Shown here one piece after another: positions 1-8,424 of a stretch of 31,188 nt of DNA; positions within the stretch are counted from its first letter, which is position 1, and each line of letters starts with the position of its first letter. The notes below the pieces were generated by a model. That model had not been told where the DNA came from and made no database searches. It saw only the letters and a list, made by a program, of their open reading frames with translations. The position numbers and the translations under genes were made by a program. Origin of the DNA: a virus (Duplodnaviria; Heunggongvirae; Uroviricota; Caudoviricetes); the IMG/VR virus record IMGVR_UViG_2690316121_000008, positions 1 through 31,188 of that record. One strand, 5' to 3'.

Positions 1-1224
1 ATGGCGCTGTCTGATGCGTGGTTGCGTTCAGTCGTTGGAAAGGAACGTGATAAGGTTTTGGTTAAATCCGATCGTGATGGTCTGTCTGTCAGAGTATCAC
101 CGAAAGGTCGCGTAGTGTTCCAATATCGTTATCAATGGGCAGGGAAAGGTGAGCGTCTTGATATCGGAACTTACCCGGCAACTGGATTAAAAGAGGCCAG
201 AGAAGAAGTTATCCGTCTTCGTGGTGAACTCGAGTCAAACCGTAATCCACGATTGGTCAAGCAGGCTGAAAAACGAAAAGCTACTGAAGCCATGACGGTA
301 GAGTCTGTGATCCGTGCTTGGTATGAAGCATATTGTGTAAAAAATAAAAAAGGTTCTGAACAGATACTTCGCTCGTTTGAGCTGCACCTGTTCTCTAAAA
401 TCGGGAATATCCCTCACGATGCAGCTACATTGCATGATTGGTTAGAAGTCCTGGAGCCTCTTAGCACTAAGACTCCAGCAATAGCAGACCGATTGCTAAT
501 TAACGCAAAGCAGGCCCATGTCTGGGCGTATAAGAGAAAGCTCATTGAAACTCGCCCGCTGTCGGATATCACGGGTAAAGATATGGATATCCGTAAAGGT
601 CAGAAGAAACGGTTTCTGACACATGATGAAATTAAAATCCTTTATGCTGCGATCGATGGTTCTCGAATGGTTCCTAAATACCGGGCCTTCATTAAACTAT
701 TGCTGCATTTTGGTTGCCGTAGTTCAGAGCTAATTACCGCCCGGGTGGACGATTTTGATTTCATTAATAAAGTATGGACTGTACCACCAGAACGACATAA
801 GACTGGGGAGATAGCAGGCGAACCGCTAAAGCGGCCCATTATTGAACCGGTTGAAGAGCTTATAAAGTACGCTATTTCTATGAACAATGGTTCCGATATG
901 CTTTTTACTAAGGAAGGAAGCAGGGAACCCGTTGGTCGGACATCATTGCAGTCGCTGCCTTACAATTTAATGCAATACGCATGGCGGCGTTTGGGGTATC
1001 AATTCCCTCATTGGTCTCTTCATGATTTGAGGCGAACAGCACGAACAAACTTTTCTGATCTTACTGCGCCTCATATTGCAGAAATAATGCTGGGTCATAA
1101 ACTGCCAGGGGTATGGCAAGTTTATGACAAGAGCAATTATCTAGAAGAACAGCGTAAAGCCTACCAAGCGTGGTGGGAGAGGGTTGAGGCGATAGTTACT
1201 TGTATTAGCTCATGTTCCCAATGA
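1..1224 (+). CDS. int: Tyrosine recombinase / phage integrase (P4-type, N-terminal arm-binding domain plus C-terminal catalytic domain)
   Basis: 407-aa ORF starting at ATG at base 1; N-terminus resembles the P4-family integrase arm-binding domain; C-terminal region contains HDLRRT and LGH motifs typical of tyrosine recombinases. The attachment site would lie left of the window. Confidence 0.9.
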   Translation: MALSDAWLRSVVGKERDKVLVKSDRDGLSVRVSPKGRVVFQYRYQWAGKGERLDIGTYPATGLKEAREEVIRLRGELESNRNPRLVKQAEKRKATEAMTVESVIRAWYEAYCVKNKKGSEQILRSFELHLFSKIGNIPHDAATLHDWLEVLEPLSTKTPAIADRLLINAKQAHVWAYKRKLIETRPLSDITGKDMDIRKGQKKRFLTHDEIKILYAAIDGSRMVPKYRAFIKLLLHFGCRSSELITARVDDFDFINKVWTVPPERHKTGEIAGEPLKRPIIEPVEELIKYAISMNNGSDMLFTKEGSREPVGRTSLQSLPYNLMQYAWRRLGYQFPHWSLHDLRRTARTNFSDLTAPHIAEIMLGHKLPGVWQVYDKSNYLEEQRKAYQAWWERVEAIVTCISSCSQ

Positions 1225-1318
1225 CATTTTTAGAATCCAGAAATCACAACCAAATCTAACAATCCTATTTGAGTGAGAAGTAGAGGTTAACCTCCGAAAT
1301 ATTGGCGATTTAGGAGAG

Positions 1319-2356
1319 TCATTGGACATTCAGTGCTTTCTCCATCTTTATGTCACTAGCAAGAATTTCTGCCTGCTTTCTCAAAACCGTTAACATAACA
1401 TCTTCTTTATTTTGTACAGCAACTAGTGAATAGAAAGGTTCACTAGTTGTACAGGTCAAACGTAATATACCAAAGTCATCATGGTGAGGTATTAATGCAC
1501 GATAATTCCCATCGGTGATAAACATAAAGCGAGCGTCAGAGTATTCGCTGAGCCACATATACTTATTATTACAAAAGAAAGTATCGCGAGCATCATACAT
1601 TACGGCAAACTTAATACCAAAATTAATGATGGAGTTCGTCTGTATACAAAGTACAATAAGTGAAATGTAACCAATAAGAAATAATGGTGCAAAAAAAGAC
1701 ATAGAATATCTTAAGTTGTCAGATGTTGCTGATTTCCTTTTTTTTATTTTAGGCGATATGTTTGCTAAGTAACTAATGTAAGCGAGGTAAATGGCAAGAT
1801 AGAATGTAAAAATAAAAAATAATGCAAAAACTGCTGTTATGAGTTTGTTTGATGTTGTATCGAAAGGAATATCCAATATATTTGATGTTAGAGAGCGTGC
1901 GTAATAATATGAGATTAATGAGATGATTAACCACGAGTATTTAATTCCGATCTTTGCATCTGTTAGTGGTTTTTTTTCTATTCTATTGAGCAATTTTATG
2001 TGAGATAATATAGTATTTGTGATACACAAAATCGTAGCAAAAATAAGTGCACTAAAAATAGGTATACTGATTTGACTGATAAATTTGAAAGAAATGCATG
2101 TCAGTAAAAATAGCACTGTTGACAATAATGCTGAATTTTGTGTTTTTCTATAGTTTTGGGGGAGGCGAATGACCCGTTGATTAGGTGAATTATTATACCA
2201 GTATTTGTGTATGATGAACCCGCAAAGAACAATCATGCACAACCAAATAACAATGGGGTATAAAGGCGCTTCCTGTGGCATGATGATGAGCACTGCCATC
2301 GAGAATAATAAAGAGTAGATGATGCCAAGATTTAATGAGGGGGGCGTTTTTCTCAT
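1319..2356 (-). CDS. Hypothetical integral membrane protein (about 7 predicted TM helices plus ~100-aa C-terminal soluble domain); AT-rich moron
   Basis: 345-aa ORF, ATG start with AGAAAGG Shine-Dalgarno-like sequence upstream; strongly AT-rich codon usage unlike flanking phage genes; multiple long hydrophobic segments in residues 10-240; convergent with int. Confidence 0.6.
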   Translation of the reverse strand: MRKTPPSLNLGIIYSLLFSMAVLIIMPQEAPLYPIVIWLCMIVLCGFIIHKYWYNNSPNQRVIRLPQNYRKTQNSALLSTVLFLLTCISFKFISQISIPIFSALIFATILCITNTILSHIKLLNRIEKKPLTDAKIGIKYSWLIISLISYYYARSLTSNILDIPFDTTSNKLITAVFALFFIFTFYLAIYLAYISYLANISPKIKKRKSATSDNLRYSMSFFAPLFLIGYISLIVLCIQTNSIINFGIKFAVMYDARDTFFCNNKYMWLSEYSDARFMFITDGNYRALIPHHDDFGILRLTCTTSEPFYSLVAVQNKEDVMLTVLRKQAEILASDIKMEKALNVQ

Positions 2357-2586
2357 CGATAACCTTTCTAATGATGTATGAATCTATTAGGTGTAAAGGC
2401 TTTTATAACAGATGTTAATGACACTCGGAAAGTGATCTTATGTTTGAAAAAACAATTTGTTACATGGTTAAATGATTACACATAATATGTTGTTTATAGC
2501 GTCTGTCTATTTGTGGATACACGCTTGAACATTTCATTTATGACACGGAGCGGATACTCAGATTCGCTTGGGCTCTGTGTCATAAA

Positions 2587-2614
2587 TGAGTCAGCTCATA
2601 TCTGAGCTGACTCA
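2587..2614 (-). terminator. Perfect 12-bp-stem palindrome immediately downstream of the AlpA-like gene; putative terminator or protein-binding site
   Basis: tgagtcagctca-tatc-tgagctgactca, directly after the stop at 2617 on the minus strand, followed on that strand by TTTAT. A second inverted repeat (2540-2550 / 2573-2583) lies adjacent. Confidence 0.4.
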
Positions 2615-2616
2615 CG

Positions 2617-2811
2617 TTACTCAATAATACCTGCAAACCTATAAATCTTTCTTGATGCCCATTTATTTGGACAGGATTTAATATCAGGATCTGGAAAATC
2701 TGGCCTGTATTTTTTGCCAGTCCTCCTGTTTACGCTGTTCCAGCGAAGCACCGTCGATATTGAAACGCCACAGAATTCGGCGACTTGTTTTGTTGTCATT
2801 AAGTTGTTCAT
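2617..2811 (-). CDS. AlpA/Xis-family small HTH DNA-binding protein (putative excisionase or regulator)
   Basis: 64 aa; MTTKQVAEFCGVSISTVLRW helix-turn-helix typical of the AlpA/excisionase (HTH_17-like) family; GGGGAG Shine-Dalgarno 5 nt upstream of ATG. Confidence 0.7.
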   Translation of the reverse strand: MNNLMTTKQVAEFCGVSISTVLRWNSVNRRTGKKYRPDFPDPDIKSCPNKWASRKIYRFAGIIE

Positions 2812-2844
2812 TGCTGCTCCCCTGCGGTTGTACAGTTGAAAGAC

Positions 2845-3381
2845 TCATGCGCATGTGTGTAATTCTAATAACTCGTTAAAACGTTCCATAAACATCCCGT
2901 AGGCATGGCCCGGTGCCAGTGGAATCACGTTGAACATCTCTGTTGCCGGGATGCCTTCCAGTACAGGCCAGAAAGAGCCATCATCAAGCCCGAGATCGCG
3001 GCGTTCGGTTGCCAGCATGATGAGATCGGCATATTTCACGGGTGTACTCATAACTGGGGGTAATCCGTATTTCTCACGGATTACGGCGTCTATTTTTTCT
3101 TCCATCCGTTTATAGTCAGGAAGAAGGCGTTTCAGTGGTGCGGGAATGTCCTGACAATACGCTTCTGTTGCATCATGCATTAACGCTTCAAAAGCAAATT
3201 CCTGCGGCACCAGCTGGCTGCAAAGCACCGCATGTTGGGCGACGCTGTAGAAGTGTGAAAGATGACCGGCAAAGCGACAGATATTTGAAAGGGAAACTGC
3301 GATATCGTTAATCACGATATCGTCTTTATTTATCCTGTCATAATAAAAATGCTTCCCGGAAAAAGTTTTAATAAATGACAT
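2845..3381 (-). CDS. HD-domain phosphohydrolase, YfdR/YfbR-like (5'-deoxynucleotidase family)
   Basis: H...HD metal-binding motifs (SVAQHAVL, LMHDATEAY, DIPAPLKR) matching the YfbR/YfdR HD family; start chosen at internal ATG (MSFIKTF...) preceded by GGAGA, giving 178 aa; the ORF track allows 9 further upstream codons (to 3408). Confidence 0.75.
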   Translation of the reverse strand: MSFIKTFSGKHFYYDRINKDDIVINDIAVSLSNICRFAGHLSHFYSVAQHAVLCSQLVPQEFAFEALMHDATEAYCQDIPAPLKRLLPDYKRMEEKIDAVIREKYGLPPVMSTPVKYADLIMLATERRDLGLDDGSFWPVLEGIPATEMFNVIPLAPGHAYGMFMERFNELLELHTCA

Positions 3382-3508
3382 TTTGTTCTCCACGTATATG
3401 TGCTGCACCGCGCTGAATTCTGGTAAAAGGAAGTCCTCGCCATCCGGCGATTATTGAGTCAATTACGTTTCCATAAATGCCCCCACAGGGGCATTTGTAG
3501 TAATGAAA

Positions 3509-4333
3509 TCAGGCGGTGAAAGTACCAATAAAGGTTTCTACTTTGCTGTCTTTGAATTTCTCAACAAGCAGATCACGAAATTCGTTAGCCATATCTTCCT
3601 GCACCGCTTCCAGCTGAATAATGCGCAGAACCAGTACAGGACGATCGCCAGTGATAATGCTGAGGCGTAATTTAAACGGACGTTCTTTCAGGCCTTCAAA
3701 TGGAACGCATTTAAATTCAAATGCCACTGGCATAATGTCTTTGGTCTTCGCTTCGACAGACTCCATCAGGGAGCGTTTGCCGCTGAAGTCATTATCTTCA
3801 AAATCAGCGGTCTGGTTTGCTTCAATCGTGATTTTACGGACAGCCGCAGCCGCTTTTGTTGCCTGAATAGCGTCACCATTAGCATCAAAGCCCACAAGGT
3901 AGTCGGCCCAGTCTTCAATCCATTCTGCCAGTGACTTCTGAGAATTACGCTCGCCATTAACAGACAACAGAGCAGAGAACGGTGCTGTCTTTTTCAGTTT
4001 GAGAGTGGCGGTGTTATCGGCGTGACCTGGTTCATCAATAGTACCCAGGTTAAGAACACTGACGGCACGCATATTATCAGCATCGATAAAGCAGCGGGTG
4101 CCTTCATCTGCAAGATCTTTAGAATAACAGGTAAAGTCATCGATGCTGGCAGTGGAAAGCGCACCACGGAAACGGAAGCGATTTAAATTAAATTTTTCCA
4201 GATCATGAATGCGGAAATTCTCAGGTAATGCCACTGCGTCGGCACCAATCTTACTGATAATTTCATTAACACCCTGAGCAGAAATAAGGGCATGGATTTG
4301 ATTAATTGCGGTTGCGTCTAAGTTCTGAGACAT
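3509..4333 (-). CDS. YfdQ-like protein (DUF2303 family), function unknown
   Basis: 274-aa ORF with AGGA Shine-Dalgarno; length and position (next to YfdR-like and YfdP-like genes) match the yfdP-yfdQ-yfdR arrangement recalled from the E. coli CPS-53/KplE1 prophage; assignment from memory, not searched. Confidence 0.65.
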
Positions 4334-4398
4334 AATAAGTCCTCACTATATAAAGATATTCAGTGATGAGATAAATAATCAGTTAATTAAGAACGATA

Positions 4399-4761
4399 TT
4401 AATGACCTGCTGCGCGGAGTTTTCCGTCAGGTTCACCGGCAAGAGTCAGTAATTGTCCCTGGTCTTCCTGCAGAATAGTCAGACGACCACCGCGATTGAC
4501 ATACATCGGCGTTTCGGTGGTGTCTTCTTCGGAAATTTTCCCGCGGTTAGTCGGGCGAACATATGAGAGTTTGTGTTTGATTTTCACACGGCTCTCATCA
4601 AATGGTTCGATTTCCAGGTTGAGTGAGACCTTACCTTTGGTTTTCGTGTTCATCACACCGGAAGCGACTTCACTGAGAACTGCGCCGATTTTGGTTTCAA
4701 ATACGCCGCCGTCCAGCTCCCCGATAAATGCCTGCACATCAGTACTGCGTTCGCTAGCCAT
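4399..4761 (-). CDS. YfdP-like small protein, function unknown
   Basis: 120 aa from ATG at 4761 (MASERSTDVQ...) preceded by GAGGAG; the annotated ORF continues upstream to 4995 without a stop, but that extension lies in a GC-rich structured leader and is probably not coding. Confidence 0.55.
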   Translation of the reverse strand: MASERSTDVQAFIGELDGGVFETKIGAVLSEVASGVMNTKTKGKVSLNLEIEPFDESRVKIKHKLSYVRPTNRGKISEEDTTETPMYVNRGGRLTILQEDQGQLLTLAGEPDGKLRAAGH

Positions 4762-4810
4762 TTTGCTGCTCCTCATCATATCGACCCTGCAAGGTCGGTT
4801 GGTTTCTCCA

Positions 4811-4897
4811 CAAAACAGAGAAGAACACCTGCGGTGACAGCCGCCCGGATGGATTGGGTTATGAGCCCGTCGTCCGGTGATGATCTTCTCTGTTTTG
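4811..4897 (-). promoter_or_regulatory. 14-bp perfect inverted repeat (CAAAACAGAGAAGA / TCTTCTCTGTTTTG) with 59-nt spacer in the 5' leader of the yfdP-like operon
   Basis: Arms at 4811-4824 and 4884-4897 read directly from the sequence; lies ~50 nt upstream of the yfdP-like start in an unusually GC-rich non-coding stretch. Confidence 0.5.
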
Positions 4898-5625
4898 TAA
4901 AAAGAGCGGTACCAGCCGGAAGCAAGTGTACAAACTGGTACCGCCAAAGCAGTGGCTGTTGTGGTGACCGGTGCTGATCTCCGGCTTGCGGTCATTTCAG
5001 ACTCTCACGGGCGTTTAATTGCCCCGCCGAACAGCTCTTTTCCGCAATAGCTGCAATGTCTTTCGCGCATCAGCCTGCGCATTCACCACAACGCTGAGAG
5101 CACTTAGCCAGTTACGGCACCACACTTTGTCGCGGTTCCATAAATGCCCTCATCGTTGCACCCTGGTCTCTTCCCAGGCGTCAAACCGAATCGCCACGCT
5201 GGTTAGGCGTCTTATCAGCATCCTCATTGACTTGCACATTCCGGCTACCTGGTTTGTTTGCCCGAGCAAGGAGTGGATTGTCCCCTTTAACGTCCCCAGA
5301 CCGCTAACGACGCATGTGCCATACGCCGTGTTACAATAAAATATTCGGTATTAGTTACCAAAGAGACGATTACTCTTATGGTTGAATGTAATACCCCTGT
5401 TGAATATTTTCTTGCGTACTATTTGTTTTTCCTATATAACGAATTGGTTGTTTTATTTACATAATAAGAAGTTTTCTTGAATAAGTTTACATTGTTTTGT
5501 CTTGCTATTTTTCAAAATTCAAGAACAATGAATTGTCGCTATCGGTAATTATTCTTTATGAAATTTTATAAATAACTCCCTGCTTTTGAGTTTTGTACGC
5601 AGTGTTTTTAGTTGTCGAGGACATA

Positions 5626-5835
5626 ATGGATAATCAAAATACTCCTGTTTTTGATGTATGTGGTTGGTACTGTGTGCCAGTTAAAGATCATAATTCAGTT
5701 ATAGTTCAACTGTCCTGCAAACAACCACCATTTGAATCTGATAAAATTATCGAAAGTCCAATATATTCTTTTCCCATAAAAGAAATACCAAATCTCATAA
5801 ATACATTACAAAACATTTATGAAGAAAATAATTGA
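5626..5835 (+). CDS. Small AT-rich hypothetical protein (69 aa, four Cys); stand-alone moron
   Basis: ATG preceded by GAGGA at 5 nt; AT-rich upstream region; intrinsic terminator immediately downstream; opposite orientation to both neighbouring operons. Confidence 0.5.
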   Translation: MDNQNTPVFDVCGWYCVPVKDHNSVIVQLSCKQPPFESDKIIESPIYSFPIKEIPNLINTLQNIYEENN

Positions 5836-5859
5836 TTATAAATCCAGTTCAAAAGTGAA

Positions 5860-5881
5860 GCGTCCATTTGGGCGCTTTTTT
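5860..5881 (+). terminator. Rho-independent terminator downstream of the small moron
   Basis: GCGTCC-ATTT-GGGCGC hairpin (one G-U pair) followed by TTTTTT. Confidence 0.55.
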
Positions 5882-5995
5882 ATTTACGAATCATTCCGGT
5901 CTTCGTATGCCCCGGACGGCTACTTCGTGGGCGTCCTGCCTGTTCGATATCTTATATAGGTACATTATGTATCTCAATGGTACATTGTCAAGTAT

Positions 5996-6017
5996 AAAAA
6001 AACCTGCCGAAGCAGGT
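5996..6017 (-). terminator. Rho-independent terminator downstream of the repressor gene (minus strand)
   Basis: ACCTGC-CGAA-GCAGGT hairpin with a run of 7 A on the plus strand (U-run on the minus-strand transcript), 14 nt past the repressor stop. Confidence 0.55.
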
Positions 6018-6030
6018 TCATAGACATTGA

Positions 6031-6705
6031 TCAGGCTTTAATTTTGTATCTTCTTGGTTTTCCTGAGAAAATAACTGTACCAATGATAGAGCAATTACCG
6101 TTTATCTTAATGTAAGGCTCAGGCCAGTTGGGGTTTAATGCTTTGAGATAACGCTGTGTCCCGTCTTCTATCAACCTTTTGAAGGTGGTTTCACCTGTAT
6201 CGTGCATCAATGCAATAACGTCATCGCCGTGGCAGGCTGGTACTTCTGGATCGACAAAAATCATGTCTCCCGGACGGTACTCATCAATCATTGAATCACC
6301 AATCACCCTCAATATATAAGTCATTTCGCCACAGGGTACAGGGCAGGGATACGTTTCTGTTGTGCTCAAATCAACCTCAGAATAGCCAACTTCTTTCCAT
6401 GCTCCGGCCTGTACCCATGATATGACAGGGACTAACGTTATTTGTTTATTAGTGATTGAAACATCAGGTTTTTTTGTGATGTTCGTTGTCTGGTGTTCTT
6501 GATCAAGCCATCCGACAGGCAGGTCGAAACATTTTTCGATGTGCCGTGCCATGCTGTCACCGATATTTTTAGTAGCGCCATCCCCCATAAACCTGCTGGT
6601 CTGGGTAGGCTCGCGATCAATCATGGTGGCAAAGGATGAATTTCCGCCAACACCATCTCTCAGTTTTCTGGCGTTAGACCGCCGGATGTCATGGATTGTT
6701 TTCAT
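6031..6705 (-). CDS. CI-type prophage repressor with C-terminal S24 (LexA-like) autopeptidase domain
   Basis: 224 aa; C-terminal domain aligns by eye with P22 C2 / lambda CI (ISWVQAGAW, GDSM catalytic Ser region, VDPEV, TFKRL, LNPNWP, INGNC); divergent from a Cro-like gene. Confidence 0.9.
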   Translation of the reverse strand: MKTIHDIRRSNARKLRDGVGGNSSFATMIDREPTQTSRFMGDGATKNIGDSMARHIEKCFDLPVGWLDQEHQTTNITKKPDVSITNKQITLVPVISWVQAGAWKEVGYSEVDLSTTETYPCPVPCGEMTYILRVIGDSMIDEYRPGDMIFVDPEVPACHGDDVIALMHDTGETTFKRLIEDGTQRYLKALNPNWPEPYIKINGNCSIIGTVIFSGKPRRYKIKA

Positions 6706-6721
6706 AACGAAATTAAAACCT

Positions 6722-6740
6722 TTGTACCGATAAGGTACAA
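6722..6740. promoter_or_regulatory. Perfect 19-bp palindrome TTGTACC-GATAA-GGTACAA; putative repressor/Cro operator
   Basis: Located in the 90-bp divergent intergenic region between the repressor and cro-like genes; a possible -35 TTGAAG / -10 TAACAT lies just downstream and further GGTACA half-sites occur at 6784-6789. Confidence 0.55.
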
Positions 6741-6795
6741 GTATCTTGAAGGTTCATCTCGATCATGTAACATGTATACTGGAGGTACATGCTGT

Positions 6796-6996
6796 ATGAA
6801 AGCGTATTGGGACTCTTTAACCAAAGAACAGCAGGGCGAGTTGGCCGGAAAAGTTGGCTCAACACCTGGCTACTTACGGCTGGTTTTCAATGGTTATAAA
6901 AAAGCCAGTTTTGTGCTGGCTAAAAAACTTGAGCAATGCACGTCAGGTGCAATTACGAAATCTGACTTAAGACCGGATATCTATCCGAAAGATTAA
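6796..6996 (+). CDS. Cro-like HTH regulator (YdaS-like)
   Basis: 66 aa from ATG 6796; HTH segment and C-terminal LRPDI motif resemble the Rac prophage YdaS family as recalled; divergent from the repressor across the operator. Confidence 0.65.
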   Translation: MKAYWDSLTKEQQGELAGKVGSTPGYLRLVFNGYKKASFVLAKKLEQCTSGAITKSDLRPDIYPKD

Positions 6997-7027
6997 CAGA
7001 ACACCTTCAATTTTTAACCACAGAACG

Positions 7028-7591
7028 ATGAGGCTAACCGTGGGTAAGCATCACTGGAAAGTAGAAAAACAGCCTGAGTGGTACGTGAAAGCTGTCAGAA
7101 AAACTATCGCGGCGTTGCCGGGGGGTTACGCTGAAGCTGCTGAGTGGCTGGATGTAACAGAGAACGCTTTATTCAACCGCCTTCGTGCAGATGGCGATCA
7201 GATTTTCCCGCTGGGATGGGCAATGATTTTACAGCGCGCGGCTGGCACTCACTACATTGCGGATGCTGTCGCACAGTCTGCTGGTGGGGTGTTTGTATCG
7301 CTTCCTGAAATTGAGGAAGTAGAGAACGCCGATATAAACCAGCGCCTGCTGGAAGTCATCGAACAGATCGGGAGTTACTCAAAGCAGATTCGTTCGGCAA
7401 TCGAAGATGGGGTAGTGGAGCCACACGAGCAGACAGCAATTAATGATGAGTTGTATCTGTCAATTTCGAAGCTCCAGGAGCATGCAGCACTGGTCTACAA
7501 AATCTTTTGCGCTCCAGAAAAGAGTAACGCCCGCGAGTGTGCAGCTCCGGGCGTCGTGGCGTTTTGTGTCTGTGGAGAAACTAACGCATGA
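7028..7591 (+). CDS. Putative CII-like / YdaT-like early regulatory protein
   Basis: 187-aa ORF immediately after cro-like gene; probable HTH near the N-terminus (AEAAEWLDVTENALFNRL); family assignment is a guess from position and HTH; alternative GTG start at 7040. Confidence 0.4.
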   Translation: MRLTVGKHHWKVEKQPEWYVKAVRKTIAALPGGYAEAAEWLDVTENALFNRLRADGDQIFPLGWAMILQRAAGTHYIADAVAQSAGGVFVSLPEIEEVENADINQRLLEVIEQIGSYSKQIRSAIEDGVVEPHEQTAINDELYLSISKLQEHAALVYKIFCAPEKSNARECAAPGVVAFCVCGETNA

Positions 7592-8424
7592 ACAGTTTAA
7601 CGGCAAATAACCGTTTGTCGCAACAGCTGGAGGTCAGCGTCGCTGAACACCTGTTGTTACGGCATGAATGCAGATTACCAAATCACCTGGCTGTAAGTAA
7701 CCACAGAGAACTTTACCTGACTGTGGGGGGCGAGTTGTGCAGGAACTTAACCGCTGGTTTCGTGACGGAAGAGGGCGTTATGTCCATGTTATTCGTTGGG
7801 AGCCAGAAACACAGCGCGTTATCTATCTTCGCAAAGACTACACGCATGAGTGCTTTAGTCCTTTGTGGAAATTCAGGCGTGATTTTGTTGAGTGTGAAGG
7901 ACCACCAGCACATTGATTCTGCCATTCCGGGACGTTACACTGTTCAGGCACCTTATAAAGCGGGTGCCGGGATTGGCGTCTTGGAAATGTTATCGGCGAT
8001 ATATGACGCGCCAGCGTCTTTTTTATCGTCTGCGTCTGTGCACACCCAAATTATGGTGGGCTGGACGGGGGCACCGAAAGGTGCGCCGGTTTCCGATAAC
8101 GCCGGTTACGCCAACCCCGTTCAGTTCACCACCAGCGAAATTGGCGTTTCCGGTGGTGAAGGTAATTCACTGTTATCGGAGGCTGCCATCATGGCTACTG
8201 TCCCAGCCCTCTCTCGTCTGAATGATGAAGACTTACATAAACTCAGTTATGTAACAACTGCACTACGTGCTCTGCGCAAGGTAACTCTTTCGGATCCGCA
8301 GGCGCATCAGGTTCTGGTAGAAACCCTTCTTAACTTGCAGGCTGAACGTATCCGTTTGGCGGATAAGGCTAATCTTCATATTCACCGTCTCCTGAATATC
8401 AGCGGAGGGCATCGTCATGCTTAA
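7588..8424 (+). CDS. Hypothetical early-right operon protein (278 aa)
   Basis: ATG overlapping the upstream stop (ATGA), typical translational coupling; no recognisable motifs by eye. Confidence 0.55.
   Translation: MNSLTANNRLSQQLEVSVAEHLLLRHECRLPNHLAVSNHRELYLTVGGELCRNLTAGFVTEEGVMSMLFVGSQKHSALSIFAKTTRMSALVLCGNSGVILLSVKDHQHIDSAIPGRYTVQAPYKAGAGIGVLEMLSAIYDAPASFLSSASVHTQIMVGWTGAPKGAPVSDNAGYANPVQFTTSEIGVSGGEGNSLLSEAAIMATVPALSRLNDEDLHKLSYVTTALRALRKVTLSDPQAHQVLVETLLNLQAERIRLADKANLHIHRLLNISGGHRHA

Follow-up and report, generated by a model that had tools for sequence, protein, structure and literature searches.

An exchangeable prophage cassette encodes an unnamed Enterobacterales membrane protein family with a predicted periplasmic domain and a tentative role in exclusion or defence

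Introduction

The prophage protein SieA of P22 resides in the inner membrane, where it blocks DNA injection (PMC10883804), and SNIPE and HXS, which are looser precedents for the present case than SieA, also act where phage DNA enters (PMC13190303, PMC13128918). Here we analyse a gene whose product may act in a comparable way, found in a 31,188-nucleotide (nt) stretch of DNA from a virus of the class Caudoviricetes (IMG/VR record IMGVR_UViG_2690316121_000008, positions 1 to 31,188; the whole of this stretch is referred to as the window). The gene is an intact open reading frame (ORF) with an ATG start at 1319..2356 on the minus strand that encodes a protein of 345 amino acids (aa), deposited as WP_021560194.1 'hypothetical protein', and it is a founding-type member of an unnamed Enterobacterales family. 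The original prediction, made from the DNA alone, described an AT-rich, integrase-proximal membrane protein and proposed a role in exclusion, defence or surface modification. The kind of element is familiar, namely a prophage moron encoding a membrane protein, and the protein would work like the exclusion proteins of the SieA type if the reading that we tentatively favour below is right.

Compared with SieA, the gene has the same form of a single prophage gene with a putative promoter of its own and an inner-membrane product, and the action of SieA is the mode that we propose for it. However, SieA consists of 164 aa with few transmembrane (TM) helices and no periplasmic beta domain, and it is confined to P22-like phages, whereas the family described here also occurs on integrative and conjugative elements (ICEs) and plasmids. 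SNIPE/PD-lambda-1, HXS and KwaA of the Kiwa system share the inner-membrane location and exert their defence where the genome is injected or close by (PMC13190303, PMC13128918, PMC11785009). HXS and Kiwa are multi-gene systems, whereas the window protein is the product of a single gene; it also lacks a cytoplasmic effector domain, and none of these systems matches it in PADLOC. SNIPE was excluded as a relative on account of its different architecture. GtrC and Oac/OafA, like the window protein, are AT-rich polytopic membrane proteins encoded beside the integrase gene (int) or attachment site of temperate enterobacterial phages and act at the periplasmic face, but they have 10-11 TM helices where the window protein has seven, and the latter has neither gtrA/gtrB partners nor conserved catalytic His, Asp or Glu residues. 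TraS of F and Eex of SXT/R391 are plasmid- and ICE-encoded inner-membrane proteins that stop DNA entry; they are small proteins with genes located within tra operons. Three ICE copies of the window family adjoin virB, but the family is also found in phages without a type IV secretion system and, on IncF plasmids, beyond the tra region; the comparison is made here by description.

Results and discussion

A conserved family without recognised relatives

Homologues of the window protein were collected with a word-indexed search of 5.8 billion proteins, which yielded 28 clusters, and with an exhaustive hidden Markov model (HMM) search of 1.84 billion representatives at 50% identity, which yielded only 33 clusters and shows the family to be very small. 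The 345-aa ORF is a real gene and not a chance ORF, because about 50 sequence clusters hold homologues of 310-390 aa with the same layout. All full-length members fall within this length range, their C-terminal domain was seen in no other architecture, and for the distal members identity to the window protein amounts to 15-35%. Every member bearing a name is called 'hypothetical' or 'uncharacterised', and the named members are all from Enterobacterales, including Escherichia, Salmonella, Citrobacter, Kluyvera, Cedecea, Kosakonia, Shimwellia and Jejubacter, with further hosts in Pectobacterium, Brenneria, Affinibrenneria, Symbiopectobacterium, Serratia, Pantoea/Mixta and Entomohabitans. On one viral contig (L043, 5818-6288; locus records are cited by number where coordinates or comparisons call for them), a 156-aa ORF comprises only TM7 and the C-terminal domain and represents a truncated remnant or else a naturally shorter form.

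When the window protein was searched against Pfam, PHROG, NCBIfam and PADLOC, no model matched, and a search of 51 family members against Pfam, PADLOC and PHROGs likewise gave no meaningful match; library matches to TMEM128, SPC25, PspB and DHHC were rejected as chance similarities to TM segments. A Foldseek search with the AlphaFold2 (AF2) model of the whole protein or of the C-terminal domain returned nothing below E 0.1 in the PDB or among the viral predicted structures of BFVD. Sequence searches of the PDB with full-length and C-terminal-domain profiles gave only low-complexity TM or insignificant matches, of which MscS (E 0.008, on a TM stretch) and 1zso (E 0.5) were rejected. Nothing was found in the literature under the accession numbers. 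Strong homology to a transporter with a housekeeping role or to an O-antigen polymerase, which would have spoken against the original prediction, was looked for in these searches and did not appear. The family is real and conserved; the libraries searched give it neither a name nor an annotation, its fold is not recognisable, and it has no relative of known function or structure within reach of the tools used.

Topology and conserved residues

Hydropathy analysis placed TM segments at approximately residues 8-26, 31-49, 74-92, 94-116, 140-158, 172-198 and 219-241. An AF2 model computed from a 51-sequence alignment (predicted local distance difference test score, pLDDT, 83.7; predicted template modelling score, pTM, 0.75) contains seven long helices and a helix at 240-255 that prolongs TM7; residues 260-313 follow as a beta domain of six strands, and residues 317-344 as a C-terminal helix. 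A run with 26 close homologues reached a pLDDT of 60 and was not used. Hydropathy, the AF2 helices, the distribution of Lys and Arg residues (K+R) and conservation together divide the protein into residues 1-244 (window 1625..2356, minus strand), with seven TM helices and a predicted cytoplasmic N terminus, and residues 245-345 (1322..1624, minus strand), which are predicted from conservation, the AF2 model and the K+R bias to form a periplasmic beta domain followed by the C-terminal helix. The seven helices and the soluble C-terminal domain of about 100 aa that had been anticipated from the DNA are thus both present in the hydropathy profile and the model.

The predicted cytoplasmic loops contain a mean of 18.2 K+R residues against 2.5 in the loops on the opposite side, and all 49 full-length members have the same bias. 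Under the positive-inside rule this bias, together with an invariant Cys pair, points to a topology with the N terminus inside and the C terminus outside, and hence to a periplasmic C-terminal domain. The earlier suggestion that this domain is cytoplasmic or periplasmic is thereby narrowed to its second half. A topology with six TM helices and a cytoplasmic C terminus was rejected, as the KIKKRK loop would then lie outside and the invariant Cys pair would be cytoplasmic. Exactly two Cys residues are present in the C-terminal domain of 48 of the 49 members, which suggests that C262 and C302 probably form a structural disulfide that stabilises the beta domain; such a bond also fits a periplasmic location.

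In the extended alignment only C262 (codon at 1571-1573), R286 (1499-1501) and C302 (1451-1453; all codons on the minus strand) are invariant, and D162, F260, Y266, Y285, R299, L300 and P307 are nearly so. D162 (1871-1873) lies in the loop between TM5 and TM6 and R154 (1895-1897), also conserved, at the end of TM5, both close to the periplasm in the predicted topology. Conservation peaks in the C-terminal domain and in the TM5-TM6 periplasmic loop, and is lowest in the cytoplasmic loops; this distribution suggests a periplasmic working face for the protein. The C-terminal domain is the most conserved part at the DNA level as well, with the blastn match to plasmid copies limited to window positions 1425-1597. 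The conserved-looking His/Asp residues to which attention had been drawn at first (H291, H292, D293 and D294) did not hold up, in that they are kept only among close relatives. Because these positions vary freely beyond the closest clade of the extended family, the motif is not a catalytic signature.

A single-gene cassette in phages, ICEs, plasmids and chromosomes

Family genes occupy four slots in temperate phages. The first is the int-adjacent slot seen in the window; the second is the nin region of a Rac-like E. coli prophage (L010), where the gene lies between replication genes and the genes for a DUF1367 protein and Q; the third is the Q-lysis interval of a Citrobacter prophage (L039), where it lies on the opposite strand between Q and the lysis genes; and the fourth is the gpS-gpV junction of a P2-like prophage of 62-69% GC (L042, 5983-7017). 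The gene at this last site has a GC content of 0.36 between flanks of 0.66 and encodes a distant member of the family that retains all of the invariant residues. In Erwinia phage ENT90 (L044), the closest sequenced phage to this prophage, gpS and gpV are adjacent without a cargo gene, and the two genomes form a clean pair of filled and empty sites.

Outside phages, ICE copies in Pectobacterium, Symbiopectobacterium and Brenneria directly adjoin the virB operon, and copies on IncF plasmids adjoin parM/stbB, as on p948 of enterotoxigenic E. coli (ETEC) H10407. Further plasmid copies were found on an ehx plasmid and on a Pantoea megaplasmid, and in Jejubacter, Kosakonia, strain YMB-R22 and others the gene forms a single-gene chromosomal islet flanked by housekeeping genes. 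The copy on p948 (L030, 4989-6011) is an intact ORF of 340 aa that is missing from the RefSeq and PLSDB gene tables; the same feature is missing from the tables of roughly three dozen ETEC-type plasmids.

Across these settings the gene keeps its own composition, with a GC content of 0.30-0.36 in 16 of 17 contexts and flanks ranging from 0.38 to 0.66. Conservation across unrelated contexts also extends over 100-170 nt upstream of the gene and over as much as about 170 nt downstream, for example at 77% over 101 nt between the window and the Citrobacter Q-lysis copy and at 82% over 167 nt between the Brenneria ICE and the Jejubacter chromosome. The upstream region contains CTGTTATAAA (2402..2411, minus strand), an extended -10-like element of the form TGnTATAAA about 45 nt before the ATG, which is kept in 9 of 11 upstream regions from unrelated contexts and has a single copy in the window (chance expectation 0.01). 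We infer that this element acts as a promoter; a consensus promoter match at 2509-2482 was set aside, with CTGTTATAAA preferred as the phylogenetically conserved candidate. A ribosome-binding site, AGAAAGG, is found 6 nt before the ATG (2363..2369, minus strand), and the homologous upstream regions keep AAAGG or AAAGA. No convincing intrinsic terminator was found downstream of the gene, no small partner ORF is evident upstream, and the cassette contains no Rfam element. In Shimwellia and Kosakonia a gene for a GNAT acetyltransferase lies directly upstream in the same orientation (L020, 6273-6782; L022, 6254-6796); as it is absent in other contexts, it was judged to be probably coincidental and was not retained as a partner.

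The 345-aa gene is therefore a moron, that is, a self-contained single-gene cassette, since it combines a promoter-like element with a gene of deviant composition and is inserted between otherwise adjacent phage genes. Whatever its function, it provides an unusually clear case of one cassette of gene and putative promoter distributed over four phage moron slots, ICEs and plasmids, and is informative on how cargo moves between classes of mobile element.

An exchangeable slot beside the integrase gene

Window positions 1-3500 were compared by blastn with sister prophages (L023, L024, L025, L034 and L035) at the same yjjG-side attachment site. Homology ends at 1204-1212 and restarts at 2533-2574, which delimits an exchangeable cassette at approximately 1213..2543. 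The first 3.5 kb of the window match E. coli chromosomes, and the whole segment is present beside yjjG in 5 of 5426 complete genomes at 99.6-99.9% identity, including E. coli 377323_2f (99.9% identical), in which the 345-aa gene is annotated as hypothetical. The int and/or yfdR segment is found in about 3000 genomes at 80-99% identity, and this cargo in only those five. The placement of the gene in a cargo position beside int, proposed at the outset from its orientation and composition, is thus supported by the replacement of this segment with other genes in sister prophages.

The sister E. coli prophages in which the contents of the slot were examined include L023, L034, L035 and L036. One carries in the same slot an AIPR protein that matches the PADLOC model for AbiU (E 6.7e-111), and another Dsr1, named in RefSeq as a defence-associated sirtuin; other occupants are a DUF4365 protein, a DUF6602 protein and unnamed small genes. 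Recognised anti-phage genes recur in the int-adjacent slot, which is a hotspot for cargo, and this prophage family has a defence hotspot as its left arm. A gene for a 3'-phosphoadenosine-5'-phosphosulfate reductase (SspD/BrxP-like) is often inserted between xis and yfdR in the sister E. coli prophages.

A proposed role in exclusion or defence at the periplasmic face

From its context, we favour, with somewhat less than even confidence, the reading that the gene encodes a prophage-expressed inner-membrane protein of exclusion or defence that acts at the periplasmic face. For a function against phages or other mobile genetic elements in the broad sense, with that of an abortive-infection effector included, the chances appear about even. 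Exclusion at the periplasmic face is favoured because defence genes occur in the slot and in the neighbourhood of family genes, because the conserved surface is predicted to be periplasmic, and because there is no cytoplasmic effector domain, the cytoplasmic loops being short and poorly conserved. With respect to neighbours beyond the slot, one family gene (L026) adjoins that of an HNH protein and has Avs3a at a distance of about 4 kb, another adjoins the gene for a GajA-like ATPase (L032), and in one lineage (L045-L047, approximately 4238-7783) the gene lies between those for SIR2_2 and RibD_C proteins, just downstream of a type VI secretion system (T6SS) clpV-vgrG cluster. The integrase-bearing DNA to the right of the gene varies within this lineage, marking an integration hotspot at the end of the T6SS locus.

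In the mechanism that we propose, a polytopic inner-membrane protein with a cytoplasmic N terminus, seven TM helices and a small beta-rich domain in the periplasm would present a conserved face at the outer leaflet of the inner membrane, made up of the beta domain, the TM5-TM6 loop with D162, and R154. It would protect the lysogen, or the host of the plasmid or ICE, from incoming phage and possibly from other mobile DNA by hindering genome entry at the periplasmic side of the inner membrane in the manner of superinfection exclusion, and its binding partner would be either a conserved host entry component or the ejection or tape-measure apparatus of the invader. Phages, conjugative plasmids and ICEs all gain by keeping competitors out, and the periplasmic side of the inner membrane is where phage ejection proteins, tape-measure proteins and the mating channel have to make their passage. 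In view of the strong purifying selection on the periplasmic domain, which spans genera and types of element, we think that the ligand is more likely a conserved host component, or a feature common to many invaders, than a fast-evolving phage protein. That the family constitutes a new structural class, in which a single inner-membrane protein, built as a seven-helix bundle with a disulfide-locked beta domain in the periplasm, forms a barrier to foreign DNA (phage and perhaps conjugation) by engaging a conserved Enterobacterales entry component, is possible but doubtful.

Several points weigh against a role in exclusion or defence. An arms race with phage proteins explains the purifying selection no better than a conserved ligand would, be it a host component or a small molecule. 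The family has no sequence or profile similarity to known exclusion or defence proteins: the 51 members gave only two chance-level matches (E ~0.2) in PADLOC-DB v2.0.0, which covers systems up to 2023, and an hhalign comparison of the family profile with P22 SieA returned a probability of 0.4%, on the basis of which the two do not appear to be homologous. A tblastn search of 50,697 sequenced phage genomes found no homologue. Several contexts, namely the chromosomal islets, the nin region and the IncF stbAB site, are without a defence neighbour. Guilt by location is, moreover, weak evidence, since such slots also carry conversion and fitness genes.

As an alternative, the gene may be an accessory fitness gene outside the conflict between mobile elements that hitch-hikes on them by virtue of a benefit to the host, such as immunity to a periplasm-acting bacteriocin or contact-dependent toxin, tolerance of envelope stress, or a contribution to host colonisation. 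This has a minor though real chance of being correct. It would agree with the single-gene islets between housekeeping genes, with carriage by virulence plasmids of ETEC and enterohaemorrhagic E. coli (EHEC) (H10407 p948 and the ehx plasmid), with the position beside a T6SS vgrG cluster in one lineage, and with moron slots that also house bor, lom, sopE and the like. However, the contexts examined have no toxin, bacteriocin or regulator gene as a consistent neighbour, recognised defence genes are what recurs as neighbours or alternative slot occupants, and, to our knowledge, the immunity proteins against pore-formers, microcins and T6SS effectors are much smaller and unrelated.

There is a small chance that the protein is instead a lysogenic-conversion enzyme or envelope modifier, which would alter the cell surface by binding an envelope precursor, lipid-linked or anchored in the membrane, and then modifying or sequestering it. 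R154, D162, Y266, Y285, R286 and R299 would be the binding residues, and an undecaprenyl-diphosphate (Und-PP)-linked glycan, lipopolysaccharide (LPS) or lipid A-core, enterobacterial common antigen (ECA), lipid II or a phospholipid the ligand. In favour of this reading, the conserved face is predicted to lie at the outer leaflet of the inner membrane, the strong conservation of the domain suggests a conserved small ligand, the named members are all from Enterobacterales, and int-adjacent slots classically house gtr and oac conversion genes, as with gtrABC in P22. The sequences nevertheless bear out the earlier judgement that the protein is of neither the Oac nor the Gtr type, and it does not belong with Wzy/WaaL proteins either. 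The members gave no meaningful Pfam score for Acyl_transf_3, GtrA, PMT_2, Wzy_C, EpsG or others, with no match at E<=1 in the 51 members to the ten-TM acyltransferase-3 (AT3) domain (PF01757) and none to Wzy_C (PF04932), the domain of Wzy/WaaL proteins with at least 10 TM helices. The hhalign probability against P22 GtrC was 1%, there are no gtrA or gtrB genes nearby, and seven TM helices are too few for the glycosyltransferase C (GT-C), AT3 and Wzy folds. In addition, the invariant residues are two Cys and one Arg only, with no catalytic set of invariant His, Glu or Asp.

An abortive-infection membrane effector, in which the periplasmic domain would sense perturbation of the envelope by a phage and the helix bundle, probably as an oligomer, would depolarise or permeabilise the inner membrane so that the cell dies before phage release, has only a slender chance. 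AbiU is present in the same slot of a sister prophage, single-protein membrane effectors of abortive infection exist, Kiwa senses membrane changes (PMC11785009), and the architecture of an outside sensor on a helical bundle is compatible with such a function. Yet the TM helices are poorly conserved and, except for R154, have no conserved polar or charged lining; there is no similarity to the TM effectors in PADLOC; and the gene is carried constitutively on many plasmids and in islets with no sign of a cognate antitoxin or regulator. Finally, the idea that the ORF is spurious or decaying and lies in AT-rich junk DNA, for which one might cite the low GC content, the lack of functional annotation and the ETEC plasmid copies without a RefSeq or PLSDB feature, is refuted on sequence grounds by the conservation of length, architecture and invariant residues in about 50 homologue clusters, together with the confident AF2 model and the intact ORF of the ETEC copy.

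If the gene does serve in exclusion or defence, it would represent a new single-gene mechanism at the level of the membrane without a known fold, and its presence on ETEC and EHEC plasmids and in prophages would bear on the host range of phages used in therapy and on horizontal transfer in Enterobacterales. The small size of the protein, its clear topology and its three invariant residues make the family easy to test.

Local setting and other features of the window

The 345-aa gene sits between a complete tyrosine integrase gene (1..1224, plus strand; Pfam Phage_integrase, Arm-DNA-bind_3 and Phage_int_M, and PHROG) and a gene for an excisionase or AlpA-like DNA-binding protein (2617..2811, minus strand; phrog_1553, E 1.6e-34) upstream on its own strand, beyond which follow yfdR, encoding a 5'-deoxynucleotidase, and yfdQ (DUF2303). 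A lambdoid prophage, including its terminase, head and tail genes, makes up the remainder of the window. The convergent orientation to int and the AT-richness noted in the original prediction are both evident here: 94 bp separate the 3' end of the gene from the stop codon of the integrase gene on the opposite strand, and the GC content is 0.28-0.36 along the gene against 0.43-0.50 in int and yfdR/yfdQ (0.34 overall, with flanks of 0.44). A near-perfect 13-bp inverted repeat, with the hairpin GTGAGTCAGCTCA gat ATGAGCTGACTCAT, lies at approximately 2583-2612 (minus strand), directly after the stop codon of xis and just beyond the edge of the exchangeable cassette, and may be a terminator or a recombination boundary.

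Elsewhere in the window, two Rfam matches above the gathering score were found on the plus strand, one to the Hfq-binding small RNA isrK (59 bits, 7948-8024) and one to the C4 antisense RNA (83 bits, 8049-8136). Both lie inside or beside a Rha-family regulator ORF (7588..8424), and the region looks like a c4/antirepressor immunity module of the P1/P7 type in a lambdoid prophage. Four phage tRNA genes are located at 13247-13556 (plus strand) and correspond to Met(cat), Arg(tct), Thr(tgt) and Gly(tcc). A second AT-rich patch, with a GC content of 0.29 at 5400-5900, contains an 80-aa ORF (5593..5835, plus strand; hypothetical protein WP_021559686.1) between yfdP and a gene for a LexA-like repressor, and this ORF looks like a second small moron.

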